Positions 16,206 to 52,373 of a stretch of 64,000 nucleotides of DNA are shown piece after piece (within the stretch, counting starts at the first letter, position 1; each line of letters begins with the position of its first letter). The notes under the pieces are model-generated. The model made no database searches and was not told where the DNA came from. It was given only the letters and a program-made list of their open reading frames with translations. The position numbers and the translations under genes are program-made. The DNA is taken from NCBI GenBank assembly GCA_016699105.1, contig CP064960.1, positions 8,727 through 72,726 of the forward strand, written 5' to 3'. Origin of the DNA: a bacterium. Lineage in GTDB: Bacteria; Patescibacteriota; Saccharimonadia; UBA4664.

Positions 16206-16285
16206 CGCCGACGCCGAGCTCTTCGAGCCGAGTGCTGAGTTGTACCAAACTAGGCCACAATGTGTTCCACATGCGTCCCGTTTGG

Positions 16286-16334
16286 CCTACCAAAGAAAAA
16301 CCCTCACGATATGTGGGGGTTTTTCTTTGGTAGG
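16286..16334. terminator. 18-bp perfect inverted repeat hairpin (cctaccaaagaaaaaccc / gggtttttctttggtagg)
   Basis: Read directly; lies between the island boundary and core genes. Confidence 0.45.
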
Positions 16335-24078: not shown

Positions 24079-24819
24079 TTACCGATTGACCCAAGAGTCA
24101 TCTGTTTTGCCAAGTTCGAACGTGCGTGACTTGGCACCCGGCTTGTCGGGTACTACACAGGAGCGAGATGAGACATGTCCACCAAATATCTCTACGCACT
24201 CGATCCTGGTTACGTCAGCTGCCCAGACTTTCCCCGATGTACGATTCTTGACTGGCTCACCAGCAGAATCGAGAAGTACTATGATCACGTTTCTGCCTTC
24301 GCCGGTTAAGCCGGCTACTTGACACGTCTGGGTGCGATCAACATTTCCATTCTGGCGGCGGTCATAGCTATGATAGTAGCCAATGCCCGGGTCTTCGCCA
24401 CCTCGACTGGACACCAATTTCTGACATTCGGAGGCAGTAACTCCACTCGGCCATTCATCGGCGATTGAACTCCAGATCGCGGCGCCGATTAGTGCAACGA
24501 CGAGTATGAAAATTGCGTTTACTGCTCCCAGTGGACCTAAAATTGACTTTTCGACCACCCAGCTGAAACCGCGCCACACCAAGCTGAGGAGGGAAAAGAT
24601 GAGATGCAGCAAGAAACGTGGGAGTTTGAGGAGAAGCTGAGGTATGTTTCGGATAAACCGGATGAACATCCGGGGCGACTGTCGCAAGAAGTAACGAAGT
24701 CGACTCCTGAGCCAGCGGCCTAACCGCATAATCCGACGCATGATACTGCGCCCGGTCAGGAGTGCGATTGCTCGGATACTGTCCCGAATGATTCTGATCC
24801 AGCGCATTCTAGCCTCCAT
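24079..24819 (-). CDS. Membrane protein with periodic Arg-rich N-terminus
   Basis: About 70 N-terminal residues with I/L-R-x-x periodicity (IRIIRDSIRAIALLTGRSIMRRIMRLGRWLRSRLRYFLRQSPRMFIRFIRNI), then two TM segments and a C-terminal soluble domain. Confidence 0.35.
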   Translation of the reverse strand: MEARMRWIRIIRDSIRAIALLTGRSIMRRIMRLGRWLRSRLRYFLRQSPRMFIRFIRNIPQLLLKLPRFLLHLIFSLLSLVWRGFSWVVEKSILGPLGAVNAIFILVVALIGAAIWSSIADEWPSGVTASECQKLVSSRGGEDPGIGYYHSYDRRQNGNVDRTQTCQVAGLTGEGRNVIIVLLDSAGEPVKNRTSGKVWAADVTRIECVEIFGGHVSSRSCVVPDKPGAKSRTFELGKTDDSWVNR

Positions 24820-24880
24820 ATCAGGCTCGATGTAAGGTACGTGCGGACTACGATACTATATCATTTTTTTAACATTTTGT

Positions 24881-25654
24881 CTAGCTTTGTCGTCTTTGAC
24901 TTGCAATAAGCAAATTATCAAAGAGGCAGGCTACCGTCATGGGACCGACCCCGCCGGGATTAGGCGTGAGTATCAGATCAGAACGATCATACACAGCTGG
25001 CTCAAATTCGGGGGCTGGCGAGCCTGCGTCCACGACCACGGCGCCGGTTTTAATCATATGAGTTGTTATGAGATGAGCTTGGCCAGTAGCGCTAAAAAGC
25101 ATATCGGCATCACCAAGTACATTTGCTAAATCAATCGTACGAATGTCACATCGCAAGACATTATGCCCTGCGGCTTCAAGCCTATCGGCAAGCGGTTTAC
25201 CAATAAGACGTCCTTGGCCGACAACTGCGATCTTGCCCTGTACTGGTACGTCATAGGCAGCTAAAAGCCACAATACAGCCTTGGGAGTAGTGGCCTCAAA
25301 CGGTGAATTGTGACCCAGACCATCGACATCTTTAGAAGCGGGTACTGCAGCTAGTGCTTGATTGGTTAAATCATCGTCAGGTAGTGGCAATTGAACAATT
25401 ATACCCGTAACAGCGGGATCGTCGCCGAGACTTTTTATACGTCTAATAATGTCAGCTGGGGCTTCGGAATAGACATCTACTTTAGCTCCAATGGCTGCAC
25501 CATAGATAGATTTGGCGCGGAGATATTTGTCGGCGGCGATATTGTCTTGTGAACGTATTATTGCTAAACGTGGTGGAACCGTCATTCCGGCAACCAAACT
25601 GGCATGTCGATTTTGTAAGAATAGGGCGAGCTCGCGCCCGTTGAGGAGTTTCAT
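24881..25654 (-). CDS. folD: Bifunctional 5,10-methylene-tetrahydrofolate dehydrogenase/cyclohydrolase
   Basis: Full-length FolD similarity (GIIVQLPLP, PGGVGPMTVA). Confidence 0.85.
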   Translation of the reverse strand: MKLLNGRELALFLQNRHASLVAGMTVPPRLAIIRSQDNIAADKYLRAKSIYGAAIGAKVDVYSEAPADIIRRIKSLGDDPAVTGIIVQLPLPDDDLTNQALAAVPASKDVDGLGHNSPFEATTPKAVLWLLAAYDVPVQGKIAVVGQGRLIGKPLADRLEAAGHNVLRCDIRTIDLANVLGDADMLFSATGQAHLITTHMIKTGAVVVDAGSPAPEFEPAVYDRSDLILTPNPGGVGPMTVACLFDNLLIASQRRQS

Positions 25655-26316
25655 AGCTGGTGAATAGTATACCGTATTTTAATAAAGCAGATACCCGCTG
25701 CCGAATAGATCTGCAGCGGGTATTTCGTGGTTGGGTGGCCCCCGGGCAATTCGTGACAACCTAGGATTGTCTCAAATTGACCCAGAGGGCCACCTTAATG
25801 CGATCCACATCTACATGAGCGCTCGTGTAGAGGCGGAACTTTGTCCCACAGTTGCGACGACAGTGTTCTGCGGTCGCAGCTGCGGGGGCGGAGGGGGCCG
25901 CCCATCAGATGAGTCGCGCGCGTGTTTGCAACATTCGGTTGCGACGTCTCGCGCTGCGTTAAGCACCTGGTGGGCGGCCGGCATGTTCAGGACTGCAGTC
26001 ATGTTGATGCCCAGACGGGCGGTCATAGTTCCACGTAGTGGCTCTATTTGGTGACTTGTGCGCCACTCAATGACCGTTTCGGCCGAAACATCTCGACGAG
26101 TCCTAAACAAAAGTATTAAGGCTTGCGCCCCTATTTTAACACCCCCTAAATTGCAGGGGGTCGTCAGGGCATAATCGTGAGTCTATCGACTCAGCAAATC
26201 ATCAGGAATCTGACGACTTTCGATTATGCTCCGACTAAAACCGAACGGAAAATCCGAACGGCACTTTGCATTATTGCACTGTTTAACATAATTGTCAATA
26301 GTTTTATGTCAATAAT

Positions 26317-26346
26317 TGCACCGCTCGGCCACTCCAGAGTATAATC
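26317..26346 (+). promoter_or_regulatory. Candidate sigma70-type promoter of cydAB (-35 TTGCAC, 18-nt spacer, -10 TATAAT)
   Basis: Read in sequence 43 nt upstream of cydA ATG. Preceded by direct repeats ttgtcaata/atgtcaata and attattgcac/aataattgcac. Confidence 0.35.
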
Positions 26347-26388
26347 ATAAGCGTAATAATATGAGTCTTGGAGGCTCAACTAGACACC

Positions 26389-27696
26389 ATGGACACCCTT
26401 ACACAAACAGCGTTTGGTCGTGCCTTGATCGGCGACTCGCTGATGTTCCACCTATTATTTATTACGTTTGGCGTTGGCATGCCGCTCCTTATCGGGCTAC
26501 TAGAATACATGGCCATCAAGACGGGTGACGCTAAGTGGCGCCATACGGCGCGGTCGTGGTCAAAGGTATTTATACTCCTGTTCATCACCGGTGCCATATC
26601 CGGGACGATGATTGCGGTACAACTGGGAGTGGTGTGGCCGCAATTTATGGCCATTGCCGGTCCGGTAATGGGCTTTGCTTTCTTCTCCGAGGGACTGGCT
26701 TTTTATGTAGAGGCAGCTTTCTTGGGCTTGTATATGCTGACATGGGATCGACTCAAGGGTTGGGCGCATTTGGGTCTACTCATACCAGTAGGAGTGGCGG
26801 CGGCGGCTTCGGCGTTCTTGATCACCAGTGTCAACGCCTGGATGAATGCGCCCCAGGGCTTCCGGATGGAAAATGGCTTGCCGGTTGATATTGAGCCCCT
26901 GGTGGCTATGTTTAACCCAGCTTTATTTACGACCTTTACCCATTCGATGGTCGGATATTATTTGACGGCGGCGGCGGCAGCAGCGGGCTATTACGCCTGG
27001 TGCTGGCTACGGCGACCAGCGGCGCGGACGAAACACCACAGCCAGGTGATGGGACTGATGCTTGGCGTTATGCTCGTCATGGGTGTACTCATGGGTGTTA
27101 CCGGCGACGCGTCTGCTAAATATATAGCCAAGTATGAGCCGGCGAAATTGGCGGCCGCTGAAGCGCTATTTACGACAACCGCCGGTGCGCCGTTGACCAT
27201 CGGTGGTTGGCTTGTCGATGGTGTTTGGCACGGTACTATTGCGATTCCGAATCTGTTGAGTTGGCTCGCGACCGGTAACATGAACGCGACAATCCAAGGA
27301 CTTGATCAAATCCCCCGTTCGGACTGGCCACCGTTGCAAATTCATTACTTCTTTGACGGCATGGTCGCTATTGGTATGGCACTCGTGGGACTCATTGTCC
27401 TGTATTGGCTACTGTACTGGAAGCGGCGCACGGCCACGACCAGCCGGCCAGTACTATGGGCATTGGTTGCTGCTGGGCCATTAGCTATGATCGCCATGCA
27501 GCTCGGCTGGCTCGTAACTGAAATTGGACGACAACCATATACCATCGCCGGAATACTACGGACTCAGGATGCGATTACGGCCTCACCGAGTGTAGTGCGG
27601 GCAGCGGTGGTCTTCCCAGTTTTGTATATAGTTATGCTAGTAGTGACATTATGGGTATTGGTGCGCATGCATCAGGGAAAGGAGCGAGTATCATGA
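26389..27696 (+). CDS. cydA: Cytochrome bd ubiquinol oxidase subunit I
   Basis: Typical CydA N-terminus and Q-loop region. ATG 26389 with ggagg RBS (ORF-track start 26368 is TTG). Confidence 0.85.
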   Translation: MDTLTQTAFGRALIGDSLMFHLLFITFGVGMPLLIGLLEYMAIKTGDAKWRHTARSWSKVFILLFITGAISGTMIAVQLGVVWPQFMAIAGPVMGFAFFSEGLAFYVEAAFLGLYMLTWDRLKGWAHLGLLIPVGVAAAASAFLITSVNAWMNAPQGFRMENGLPVDIEPLVAMFNPALFTTFTHSMVGYYLTAAAAAAGYYAWCWLRRPAARTKHHSQVMGLMLGVMLVMGVLMGVTGDASAKYIAKYEPAKLAAAEALFTTTAGAPLTIGGWLVDGVWHGTIAIPNLLSWLATGNMNATIQGLDQIPRSDWPPLQIHYFFDGMVAIGMALVGLIVLYWLLYWKRRTATTSRPVLWALVAAGPLAMIAMQLGWLVTEIGRQPYTIAGILRTQDAITASPSVVRAAVVFPVLYIVMLVVTLWVLVRMHQGKERVS

Positions 27697-28628
27697 CAGC
27701 TGATTATCAAACTGCAGCCGTGGCCATGGCTGGTATTCCCTTGGCCTTTGCGATATTGTATAGCATCTTTGGAGGTATCGAATTTGGTCTGCCACTGGCG
27801 GCTTTGACTCATGACAAAGCGGGTGCTGCACGTGGCCGCCGTTACTTCTCCCCCATCTGGGAAAGTACCAATGTGTTCTTAGTTGGCGTGGTGGCGGCAG
27901 TGATGACTATCTTTGGCGCTGGTCTGCCCATTTTGAGCTCATTACTTCAACCATTATGGCTACTGGCAGCCGGCGCTTTGGCTGTACGGGGCGCACTCAT
28001 CGTCGGTGTGTTTTACGGCGGCTGGACCAATTGGACGGCTCGGGTACTGTTGGCAGTGGTAAGTCTGGCGATTCCGGCGGTACTGATTCAAAACAGTACC
28101 ATTATGCTCACGGGCGACGGCGATCTCCTCAATCATCTGGGTATGGTAGTAGCGCTTGGAACACTGGCGATTAGTTTGGCCGTAGCTCTATGGGCGGGAT
28201 ACTTTTATACACCCGGTAAAACCACGCGCGACCTGGCTCGCTTAGGCTTTTGGCTGGCAATCATGCTGTCGTGGTTTACGTTGCCGTTGGCAATTGCCCT
28301 GGATGGCAGTGTCTTGTCCGACGGTCGCAATGTCTTGAGTGTCATGTGGCCCGTGTATGGATTGAGCTTGTTGGCGGTGCTGACCTTGGCCAGTGAATGG
28401 CGCCGACGTTACTGGGTAGCAAGCGCAGTACTGACAGCCGGAGTAGCTATCACGCTTTTTGTGGCGCAAATGCCATACTTAGTCCGTCCAACGGTGCTTT
28501 TAACAGATATGGTGACGAATGGTTTCTCGCAAATTTGGATTGCTACAGCTTTTGGTTTAGCGGTGGTCGTAGTTGTACCGGTATTATTCGTACTCCACCG
28601 GTTGGTAGCCACCGACTCCCGTCACTAA
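27693..28628 (+). CDS. cydB: Cytochrome bd ubiquinol oxidase subunit II
   Basis: Polytopic membrane ORF overlapping cydA stop (ATGA), aaggag RBS. Confidence 0.75.
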   Translation: MTADYQTAAVAMAGIPLAFAILYSIFGGIEFGLPLAALTHDKAGAARGRRYFSPIWESTNVFLVGVVAAVMTIFGAGLPILSSLLQPLWLLAAGALAVRGALIVGVFYGGWTNWTARVLLAVVSLAIPAVLIQNSTIMLTGDGDLLNHLGMVVALGTLAISLAVALWAGYFYTPGKTTRDLARLGFWLAIMLSWFTLPLAIALDGSVLSDGRNVLSVMWPVYGLSLLAVLTLASEWRRRYWVASAVLTAGVAITLFVAQMPYLVRPTVLLTDMVTNGFSQIWIATAFGLAVVVVVPVLFVLHRLVATDSRH

Positions 28629-43371: not shown

Positions 43372-43677
43372 GCGTCGCCTCGTCCAATCAGCGACCGTAT
43401 TCAGCGAGAAAAACTCCGCGCCAGAGGCATTATTGTGGTGGCTCCGCCCCACTGGCGCCAGCGTCGCCACGTCATAGCAAGTTGGCAGCAGTCCCTGTTG
43501 TACAAACGAGCCAAGATTGAAGCTACCTTTGACCACTTAAGAAGATCATATACCTCTAGTGCGCTTGTTTCCAGGAAGCGTGAACGAGTATTTACTGCAT
43601 TACGTCAGGATTTTATTGGGTTACCAGATGGAGATGGGTTTTTAGATTCACGGTCAATATGTGATCAGCCTCCTAGA

Positions 43678-44322
43678 CTAATGCCTAGGAGGCTGATTAT
43701 TCACCAACCCTTCCGTTGTAAGGAAATCGTTCCTCCAGCCATAGCCGTCTGCAGGCCCACGACCGGGCCGGCGGGGATCTATTACTGGGCGAGTTTTGTA
43801 TCTTTCCAAACTTGCCCAGTCTGCTGGCCGAGGTCGATCGGGCTTTGGACAGCGGTTCACCTCCGATGCTTGATAGACATAAGTCTCCATGTCGTAGCAG
43901 CTAACGTAGACTTCCTTAGCTACCGGAACAGCCTCGACGCCAGCGCGTAGCACGAACTCACCTGGTATCGCGTGATAAGGCTCAAACATTCGCCGATCAA
44001 CGAGATAAATGGAACCACCAGGATTGAGCACGGCTGCCTTGAGCACACTAGGAATGGCAAAAAACTCATGCCAAATCGTTCCATCCGGATCTTTATACGT
44101 GTGCCAGCCTGACCAGCGATCCCGGCTCCAGATTGCAGCCGCAAAAATAGCCACGTCAGTACTTACTGTCGCAAACACTGTCGACGGCACGAGGATTGGC
44201 CGACCGAAGGCATCCTCAGAATATATACTGTTCGAGTTTTTTGGTCGTAGCTCGGTCAGCCCCCGGACGGGCAGCCCGCACATGAGTAGATCATTCTTCT
44301 GGGCGAATCGGTCGAGGTTCAC
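43678..44322 (-). CDS. Hypothetical protein
   Basis: 214-aa ORF. Confidence 0.3.
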   Translation of the reverse strand: MNLDRFAQKNDLLMCGLPVRGLTELRPKNSNSIYSEDAFGRPILVPSTVFATVSTDVAIFAAAIWSRDRWSGWHTYKDPDGTIWHEFFAIPSVLKAAVLNPGGSIYLVDRRMFEPYHAIPGEFVLRAGVEAVPVAKEVYVSCYDMETYVYQASEVNRCPKPDRPRPADWASLERYKTRPVIDPRRPGRGPADGYGWRNDFLTTEGLVNNQPPRH

Positions 44323-48128: not shown

Positions 48129-48147
48129 GCCTACCTCAATAAAACCA

Positions 48148-48348
48148 AAATAAGCACCTACTGACGTAGATGCTTATTTTGGTGCGCCCGGCAGGATAGC
48201 GGCTTCGCCTTTTCCCTGCGGTGCTCGGAATATGCCCAAGCCAGCTTGGTCGCATTCCTGCGCTCCTCGTTTACCGAACCTGATGCAGGTTCTCACCCAC
48301 CGTGCGCCATAACCCAAAATAAGCACCTACTGACGTAGATGCTTATTT
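48148..48348 (-). ncRNA. tRNA-Arg-linked structured element E1. Terminator copy (48148-48179) + 137-nt element (48180-48316) ending in a copy of the tRNA-Arg 3' terminus ...atcctgccgggcgcacca + tRNA terminator (48317-48348)
   Basis: 49-nt direct repeat 48148-48196 = 48317-48365. Internal GNRA hairpin cgcaGGAAtgcg, covariation versus the second copy at 52 kb. Confidence 0.5.
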
Positions 48349-48424
48349 TGGTGCGCCCGGCAGGATTCGAACCTGCGACCCCTTGGTTCGAAGCCAAGTA
48401 CTCTATCCACTGAGCTACGAGCGC
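48349..48424 (-). tRNA. tRNA-Arg (anticodon TCG)
   Basis: GCGCTCGTAGCTCAGTGGATAGAGTACTTGGCTTCGAACCAAGGGGTCGCAGGTTCGAATCCTGCCGGGCGCACCA. Confidence 0.85.
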
Positions 48425-48469
48425 GCCTGGCTATTTTACTCTGTTGGCGAAATAGAGTCGAGAGTCTAA

Positions 48470-51952: not shown

Positions 51953-52017
51953 AATTAATTACTTACACTATATATACTGAATTGCGAATATGTACATCGT
52001 ATTCGAGCAAGTAAACA

Positions 52018-52216
52018 AAATAAGCCCTCCTGACGGAGGGCTTATTTTGGTGCGCCGAGAGGATTGGGGCTATCGCCCCTTCCTGTGGTGCTCGGAATAT
52101 GCCCAAGCTTGCTTGGTCGCATTCCTGCGCTCCTCGTCCACCGTACCCCACGGGGGTTCTCGCCCCTACGGCCACATGAGACCAAAATAAGCACCTACTG
52201 ACGTAGATGCTTATTT
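52018..52216 (-). ncRNA. tRNA-Arg-linked structured element E2. Terminator-like hairpin (52018-52047) + 137-nt element (52048-52184) ending ...aatcctctcggcgcacca (mimics tRNA-Arg-CCG 3' end) + terminator (52185-52216)
   Basis: Same length and conserved core (ACGAGGAGCGCAGGAATGCGACCAAGC..GCTTGGGCATATTCCGAGCACC) as E1, with compensatory stem changes. Confidence 0.5.
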
Positions 52217-52291
52217 TGGTGCGCCCAGAGGATTCGAACCCCCGACACCCAGTACCGGAAACTGGTGCTCTATCCCCTGAGCTACGAGCGC
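52217..52291 (-). tRNA. tRNA-Arg (anticodon CCG); T-stem appears 1 nt short (possible indel)
   Basis: GCGCTCGTAGCTCAGGGGATAGAGCACCAGTTTCCGGTACTGGGTGTCGGGGGTTCGAATCCTCTGGGCGCACCA. Confidence 0.75.
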
Positions 52292-52373
52292 AAGCTACTT
52301 CAGATTAGATGATTTGGTCGCAATACTCAAGGGCTGACGAATTAATGAGCAATGCTATACTATTTAAAGTAAC

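Follow-up and report, generated by a model that had tools for sequence, protein, structure and literature searches.

The 734-nt gap between the divergent genes folD (minus strand) and cydA (plus strand), located at 25655-26388 of the 64,000-nt stretch of DNA analysed here (the window), contains a non-coding block that we regard, at an even balance of confidence, as the gene of an independent, lineage-specific structured non-coding RNA (ncRNA) of about 580 nt, which lies outside the known families and has no assigned function. A first-pass annotation of the sequence had listed an independent ncRNA among several options for the block. This option gained support in our analyses, as we found (i) a conserved promoter on the minus strand, (ii) a conserved terminator, (iii) compensatory changes supporting the predicted helices, and (iv) no coding signal, the features by which an ncRNA gene is recognised. 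That the element is transcribed, from which strand and between which ends, and that it has any function, is what we infer from these features.

A GC-rich, hairpin-dense block between folD and cydA

FolD encoded in the window is exactly the protein NCBI QQR52549.1, and cydA is followed by cydB. The gap separating the two genes is the widest in its 14-kb neighbourhood of a 1.3-Mb genome, and gene callers placed no genes inside it on 10 identical contigs carrying the same FolD. The anomalously high GC content noted in the first-pass annotation was reproduced. The segment 25690-26110 has ~60% GC, and the 200-nt windows at 25700-26099 range from 58 to 63%, against 46-50% in the left flank and 42-43% in the right. 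Across the whole window (mean 50.3%, sd 4.9% and maximum 62% in 300-nt windows), the block lies about 2 sd above the mean, a level reached by several coding stretches and by no other non-coding stretch of the 64 kb. The structured unit also extends past the right edge originally given to it, up to ~26264.

All of the stems quoted for the block at that stage are present (for instance, ggtggccc/gggccacc at 25734-25741/25787-25794), albeit the 11-bp stem nearest to folD had been placed off by one base and actually occupies 25691-25701/25713-25723. We counted 19 inverted-repeat pairs within 801 nt. For 25685-26140, the minimum free energy (MFE) corresponds to z = -8.4 for the plus strand and z = -9.9 for the minus strand; none of 100 dinucleotide-shuffled sequences folded as well, and the entire 734-nt gap gave an MFE z of -11.2. 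In a folding scan of the whole window (200-nt windows), the block appeared as the longest run of outliers; each of the remaining outliers is due to one long terminator hairpin or to a tRNA-linked element, and none of them is a chain of eight to nine helices.

The block is non-coding. Two open reading frames overlap it as described before (25731..26054, plus strand, 107 aa; 25811..26110, minus strand, 99 aa), and the earlier remark that they do not resemble proteins is borne out by the lack of a Pfam match for either. The 99-aa frame, searched with HMMER against 1.84 billion representatives, found no homologue better than E 2.6e-4, its three weak matches all being to proline-rich stretches of long proteins, and no similar frame was found in the orthologous gap of the nearest relative (locus L014). 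Mismatches between the window and L014 fall on the three phases as 95/106/108 in the element vs 62/42/168 in folD. No pseudogene signal was obtained by tblastn of the neighbouring histidine kinase, response regulator and Pyr_redox proteins against the gap, and tblastx matches between gaps were confined to the promoter region. A clear protein match, which had been named as one of two results that would refute the reading, was found with none of Pfam, HMMER and tblastn.

Anatomy and conservation of the proposed minus-strand unit

The coordinates of the predicted features are collected in Table 1. In the proposed scheme, RNA polymerase would start at an extended -10 promoter of the sigma-70 type (26298-26270), back to back with the cydA promoter, and the ~580-nt transcript would fold into a chain of 8-9 helical domains, one of which would be a multi-branch junction. 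Transcription would halt, at least partly, at the terminator (25723-25691), and folD would then use its own near-leaderless promoter. Selection would act on the helices and on short islands at the helix bases, leaving the apical parts free to change.

Table 1. Predicted features of the folD-cydA region, in window coordinates
Feature	Position	Strand	Description
folD	24881-25654	-	Pfam THF_DHG_CYH, E 1e-30
folD -10-like hexamer	25671-25666	-	TATACT, 11 nt before ATG (25654-25652); no Shine-Dalgarno
Putative intrinsic terminator	25676..25723	-	11-bp GC-rich stem AUACCCGCUGC/GCAGCGGGUAU, then U-rich CUGCUUUAUUAAAAU
Hairpin f	25734..25794	-	conserved base CCCyCkGGGUC...CCCGGGGG; apical part variable
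Hairpin e	25804..25837	-	palindromic centre (GAGCGCUC)
Hairpin d	25845..25886	-	CCCCGCAGCUGCGAC...GUCGCAACUGUGGG; conserved GCCCCCGC precedes
Hairpin c	25896..25979	-	84 nt; base GGCCGCCCACCAG/CUGAUGGGCGGCC; conserved internal GCGCGACUnAU
Multi-branch domain b	25984..26109	-	closing stem GUUUAGGAC/GUCCUGAAC
Small hairpin	26118..26131	-	GGCGCAAGCC; GCAA (GNRA) loop, GCAA kept in L014
5' part, lower GC	26139..26264	-	three-way domain (26162-26235) and hairpin ACCCCCUGCAAUUUAGGGGGU (26141-26161)
Putative promoter of non-coding unit	26270..26298	-	TTGACA-17-TGcAATAAT; -35 TTGACA 26298-26293, 17-nt spacer, extended -10 TGcAATAAT 26278-26270
Putative cydA promoter	26316..26345	+	TTGCAC-18-TATAAT; GGAGG 26370-26374
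cydA	ATG 26389	+	Pfam Cyt_bd_oxida_I, E 2e-112; cydB next

Homologues of the element amount to two full copies and a partial one. L014, with 75% identity in FolD and 84% in CydA, shares the arrangement of the window (cydBA, a gap of 810 nt, folD), and L051 (FolD 72%) is a short contig that retains the last 156 nt of the gap. The minus-strand promoter matches the consensus at 11 of 12 positions and carries the additional TG, with a predicted start near 26264. It is identical to that of L014 at 31 of 36 bases vs ~46% identity across the rest of the unit, and it is the sole stretch of the gap recovered by blastn between the two (E 1e-15). At the opposite end, the terminator stem (25723-25713/25701-25691) ends 36 nt before folD, and L014 and L051 share both the stem and the U-rich tail. 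Some read-through is likely, as the run of U residues is interrupted. A simple terminator scan did not list the site.

Between these ends, the degree of conservation differs from domain to domain. The arms of the three-way domain pair 26163-26183 with 26215-26235, and the sense folds of the 5' part (-37.7 and -13.7 kcal/mol) are each more stable than their antisense counterparts. The sequence of this part is poorly conserved, and L014 has a CCCC/GGGG hairpin at the place matching the ACCCCCUGCAAUUUAGGGGGU hairpin. The closing stem of domain b, which encloses four small hairpins together with the conserved single-stranded CGUGGAAC, is retained in L014 as GUUCAGAC/GUCUGAAC, a U.G pair being replaced by C-G. 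Hairpin e has a counterpart at the same position in L014, where the sequence differs and 11 nt are inserted. The base of hairpin f is common to the window, L014 and L051, and its apical 30-45 nt are unrelated among the three. The islands that are invariant between the window and L014 are CGUGGAAC, CUGAAC, CCGGCCnCCC, GCGCGACUnAU and GCCCCCGC. As helix bases and junctions are conserved and apices are free to vary, this pattern is suggestive of a folded RNA whose core is compact and which would act in trans or as a stable structural or decoy RNA.

In the element, 54% of the aligned columns differ between the window and L014, vs 65% at third codon positions of folD. Against this background, all 16 pairs of helix c are kept in both sequences, four of them via changes on both sides, and so are all 15 pairs of helix d, seven via changes on both sides. 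Together, the two helices retain 31 of 31 pairs with 11 double changes and three wobble changes, a covariation that rests on two sequences, with the alignment and the structure derived from those same sequences. When the partners were slid by 1-3 columns as controls, only 0-1 double changes and 33-43% pairing were obtained. The retention of pairing through near-saturating divergence argues against decaying junk.

The earlier suggestion to look for conservation and covariation in relatives was rewarded in part, as the structure is kept in L014 and no alignment to the sister lineages (L018 and L020) was obtained. The gap is identical within the ten same-species contigs and within four contigs of the L014 species, which leaves no covariation at the population level. 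Across nine of the ten same-species contigs, the 1.8 kb of 24744-26543, which span folD, the gap and the beginning of cydA, contain one SNP in all; the same nine contigs diverge by 0.25-2.5% elsewhere, and the genes flanking this region show clustered tracts of SNPs. The low SNP count reflects a sweep or a recombination tract of recent date, or else strong constraint.

Two further observations were made at the promoters. A dif-like motif, TTATGTTAAAC, inside the spacer of the minus-strand promoter was considered and set aside, as it is unconserved in L014 and not accompanied by a turn in GC skew. The segment 26265-26325, which holds the back-to-back promoters, contains two direct repeats, TGTCAATA(G/A)TT and AT(T/A)ATTGCAC, each present twice, as well as an imperfect 17-nt inverted repeat. 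These repeats may form an operator common to cydAB and the non-coding unit.

Competing readings and the history of the locus

A serious rival to the ncRNA is a palindrome-generating process in a tolerated spacer, which we hold to be rather improbable. Under this rival, the phenomenon would be at the DNA level and no RNA function would be involved. The spacer would keep renewing its palindromes by template-switch or inverted-duplication mutation, or would consist of sites that form hairpins or cruciforms in the DNA, and the apparent compensatory changes would have arisen by copying from arm to arm. Several observations favour it at the expense of the ncRNA. Many helices are almost perfect, with palindromes that extend right into the centre (CCUAGG, GAGCGCUC, CGGCCG and GACUGCAGUC), which looks more like inverted duplication of DNA than like RNA loops under selection. 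There is no strand asymmetry either, as the two strands hardly differ in their number of G.U pairs or in folding energy, and helices c and d contain five sense G.U cells vs three sense A.C cells. Apical parts have been replaced wholesale between close species, and the gaps of the sister lineages L018 and L020 are equally hairpin-dense, unrelated in sequence and mutually unalignable (MAFFT and RNAalifold revealed no convincing helices common to the two). A covariance model built from the window and L014 found nothing in them, nor any credible match among 22 related loci and 67 viral loci. Large functional RNAs usually retain more primary sequence than this element does. The ncRNA is further weakened by its interrupted terminator U tract and by covariation drawn from one species pair.

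Nevertheless, other properties are difficult to reconcile with a mere generator of palindromes. The genomes of Patescibacteria are very small and poor in non-coding DNA, and the gap persists across the clade in a streamlined genome of 1.3 Mb. The promoter and the terminator are conserved exactly at the two ends of the element, conserved single-stranded islands (CGUGGAAC and GCGCGACU) and a multi-branch junction lie between them, and for copying events, eleven independent double changes within two helices would be a large number. Nor does the GC skew turn at this locus, as it might at an origin or terminus of replication. The locus also bears on a broader question, namely whether a bacterial RNA can be functional with only its helices conserved, or whether mutation can generate such palindromes without any function.

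The comparison with relatives indicates to which of its neighbours the block belongs. In FolD, L018 (67% identity) and L020 (66%) group in a single clade together with the window and L014. They have no cydAB, and their gaps, 658 and 832 nt long with 62-63% GC and z of -7.8 and -12.4, lie between a response-regulator gene and folD. L027, which represents a separate lineage, and probably L034 likewise have a hairpin-dense gap in front of folD (z of about -9 to -10). In more distant relatives, the genes for a histidine kinase, a response regulator and FolD are contiguous without a gap. A search of metagenome contigs with the FolD alignment yielded 27 loci, most of which miss the gap, and a search of genome contigs with FolD returned only archaeal FolDs of 31-33% identity. 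As a hairpin-dense gap stands beside folD even where cydAB is absent, the block travels with folD and not with cydAB.

This distribution raises the possibility of a cis-acting folD element, either a very long structured leader or an intercistronic spacer whose last hairpin would serve as an attenuator or as a processing or stability hairpin. folD would be fed from the promoter at 26298-26270 or, in L018 and L020, from the histidine kinase-response regulator operon. We consider this improbable. In its favour, a dense gap lies directly upstream of folD in the window, L014, L051, L018, L020, L027 and probably L034; the upstream neighbour varies (cydAB, a response regulator or Pyr_redox_2) and folD is constant; the U tract of the terminator is imperfect; and the ancestral arrangement has the histidine kinase, the response regulator and folD in one operon. 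On the other hand, a -10-like hexamer (TATACT, TACACT, TAAACT, TATGGT or similar) precedes the ATG of folD by 6-11 nt in most of 20 loci, which have no Shine-Dalgarno sequence, whether the gap is present or not. Judging from this pattern, the folD mRNA is most likely leaderless or near-leaderless and starts past the terminator of the element, which weakens the idea of a folD leader. In addition, THF, ZTP and other riboswitches gave no match even at E 10, no conserved antiterminator pairing was seen by inspection, and known riboswitch leaders are several-fold shorter than 580 nt. A cis-acting leader is recognised by a downstream gene that has no promoter after the element, and this holds for neither folD nor cydA. 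The promoter of folD itself does not explain why the element stays beside folD.

The hexamer at 6-11 nt before the ATG, again with no Shine-Dalgarno sequence, was recorded just before folD in L014, L018, L020, L022, L024, L027, L029, L032, L034-L037, L051 and L052 and also before many other genes of the window, which suggests that leaderless or near-leaderless mRNAs may be widespread in the lineage.

A protein-coding gene, a frameshifted pseudogene or a mobile repeat (REP or MITE) is very improbable for the block: although two frames of ~100 aa overlap it, they lack Pfam matches and homologues, the substitutions show no codon periodicity, and blastn-short detected no second copy of any part of the gap in the 64-kb window (~5% of the genome), so that the multiple copies expected of a repeated palindromic element are missing there. 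The remnant of foreign DNA considered in the first-pass annotation fares no better, as blastn found no match to the block in phage genomes, two conserved-island patterns matched viral contigs at chance level only, and no pseudogene signal was detected.

The least credible reading is a 5' leader or riboregulator of cydAB, the idea that the first-pass annotation had placed foremost: the block does lie on the upstream side of cydA, and cydAB is present in the window, L014 and L053 lineages and adjoins the block in the first two (the L053 contig ends inside cydA and carries no information on adjacency), but the conserved cydA promoter, which bounds the unit opposite the folD side and is shared with L014, sits between the block and cydA, no plus-strand promoter reading through the block was found (the lone promoter-like site on that strand, 26265-26292, is likewise downstream of it), L018 and L020 have a gap yet no cydAB, and cydAB itself is apparently a recent lateral acquisition. 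The annotation should be corrected in that the block is not a cyd leader.

As to the origin of cydAB (26389-28628), close homologues with 84-86% identity were found in two sister species only (L014 and L053), and the genes stand where relatives have a histidine kinase and a response regulator upstream of folD. The next-best CydA, on a metagenome contig, is only 49% identical, and the few named matches (~40%) are from other phyla. Because the next homologue is so distant, cydAB looks like a recent lateral acquisition, inserted beside an older folD-linked element.

Returning to the ncRNA, it is attractive to speculate that the window and its relatives share an ncRNA of a new class, large (about 0.6 kb) and ornate, restricted to one clade of Patescibacteria (probably Saccharibacteria, judging by gene content) and inherited beside folD, the gaps of L018, L020 and perhaps L027 and L034 being the same RNA diverged beyond recognition. 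We regard this extension as tentative and rather doubtful. If true, it would represent a functional RNA defined by structure only in organisms with minimal genomes, with helices under selection and a sequence in near-neutral turnover.

Other non-coding units were noticed upstream of folD, or of the histidine kinase-response regulator-folD cluster, in L032 (about 55-300), L021 (about 1655-2150) and L027 (652-1240). They are about 230 to 530 nt long, each with a TTGACx-17-TAnnnT promoter at one end and a strong terminator at the other, have no Rfam match, and resemble neither the element of the window nor one another. In L037, a metagenome contig, a match resembling the type III hammerhead ribozyme lies on the minus strand at 1683-1737, ~0.8 kb upstream of folD, with the CUGAUGAG and CGAAA cores intact; its score (33.9 bits, E 5e-4) is below the gathering score of 48.5.

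Relation to known RNAs, and other features of the window

The block is not an RNase P RNA, tmRNA, SRP RNA or B12 riboswitch, as had been judged from conserved motifs and as Rfam and ARAGORN now confirm. Scanning 25400-26500 with cmscan and Rfam 15 at E<=10 returned three chance-level matches only (mir-1460, rteR and Yar_3; 12-21 bits vs thresholds of 50-74). The families covered include RNase P, tmRNA, SRP, 6S, cobalamin, THF, ZTP, OLE, GOLLD, ROOL, HEARO, raiA, and group I and II introns. At gathering thresholds, Rfam detected four tRNAs and nothing else in the whole window. ARAGORN likewise placed four tRNAs elsewhere in the window and none in the block, and called none in L014, L018, L020, L027 or L022. 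Nothing relevant was found by Rfam in the gaps of L014, L018, L020, L027, L021, L032, L034 and L051. A resemblance of ACCGCCCGUCUGGGCA to the 3' motif of the ZTP riboswitch was rejected; the segment is a hairpin with a compensatory change in L014, and Rfam gave it no support. Our search of the literature found no description of such an element, nor of RNA biology in Patescibacteria beyond rRNA, tRNA and introns.

The closest kind appears to be the orphan large structured ncRNAs, from which the block departs in that its sequence is far less conserved and its distribution very restricted. RNAs of the OLE, ROOL, GOLLD and raiA type were found as long GC-rich intergenic regions, like this block. 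They share with it a length of several hundred nucleotides, a GC content above that of the genome, a location in an intergenic region of unusual length, numerous helices with a multi-branch junction among them, a predicted promoter and terminator of its own, and an unassigned function. In contrast to them, the block matched none of these Rfam families even at E 10, is conserved in sequence in short islands only, a conservation that is lost at ~66% FolD identity, occurs in two or three uncultured species, and has several helices that are perfect palindromes.

Comparisons with smaller RNAs are less close. In Escherichia coli, 6S RNA (ssrS) lies directly upstream of the folate gene ygfA. Like the block, it is conserved in structure and poor in conserved sequence, and it is upstream of and co-oriented with a gene for a one-carbon/folate enzyme. 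However, 6S RNA forms one rod of ~180 nt interrupted by a central bubble, whereas the block has 8-9 separate helices in ~580 nt and no 6S match in Rfam, so that the link is an analogy of gene position only. The sponge RNAs CsrB and RsmZ are also chains of stem-loops with an intrinsic terminator, a promoter of their own and low sequence conservation, but the block has no recurring loop motif such as GGA, its loops being heterogeneous and often self-complementary. Finally, the ZTP (pfl) and THF riboswitches, known regulators of folD and other folate genes, resemble the block in standing upstream of folD with a 3' terminator hairpin. They differ from it in that the block has no Rfam match, is ~5 times larger, and is followed by a folD apparently expressed from its own leaderless promoter past the terminator.

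If the ncRNA is genuine, a structured RNA of 0.58 kb beside a core one-carbon gene would be among the very few large orphan RNAs in Patescibacteria, and it would offer a concrete target for metatranscriptomics.

Other parts of the window stood out in the folding scan. Intrinsic terminators with unusually long, perfect stems of 16-20 bp (e.g., CCUACCAAAGAAAAACCCCCAC...GUGAGGGUUUUUCUUUGGUAGG) are located at 16265-16315 and 43660-43700 and are strong folding outliers. Both tRNA-Arg genes (tcg and ccg) are followed by a composite of ~290 nt (48135-48430 and 52010-52295, minus strand), the two copies being 88% identical. Each composite comprises, in this order, a terminator hairpin, ~125 nt of structured sequence (core ACGAGGAGCGCAGGAAUGCGACCAAGCnnGCUUGGGCAUAUUCCGAGCACC), the tRNA 3' end for a second time (AUCCUnCCGGGCGCACCA) and another terminator, and the part additional to the tRNA received no call from Rfam or ARAGORN. 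One hairpin differs between the copies by compensatory changes (GAACCUGCAUCAGGUUC vs GAACCCCCGUGGGGUAC). The composite could be either a miniature integrative element targeting tRNA-Arg or a tRNA-linked ncRNA.
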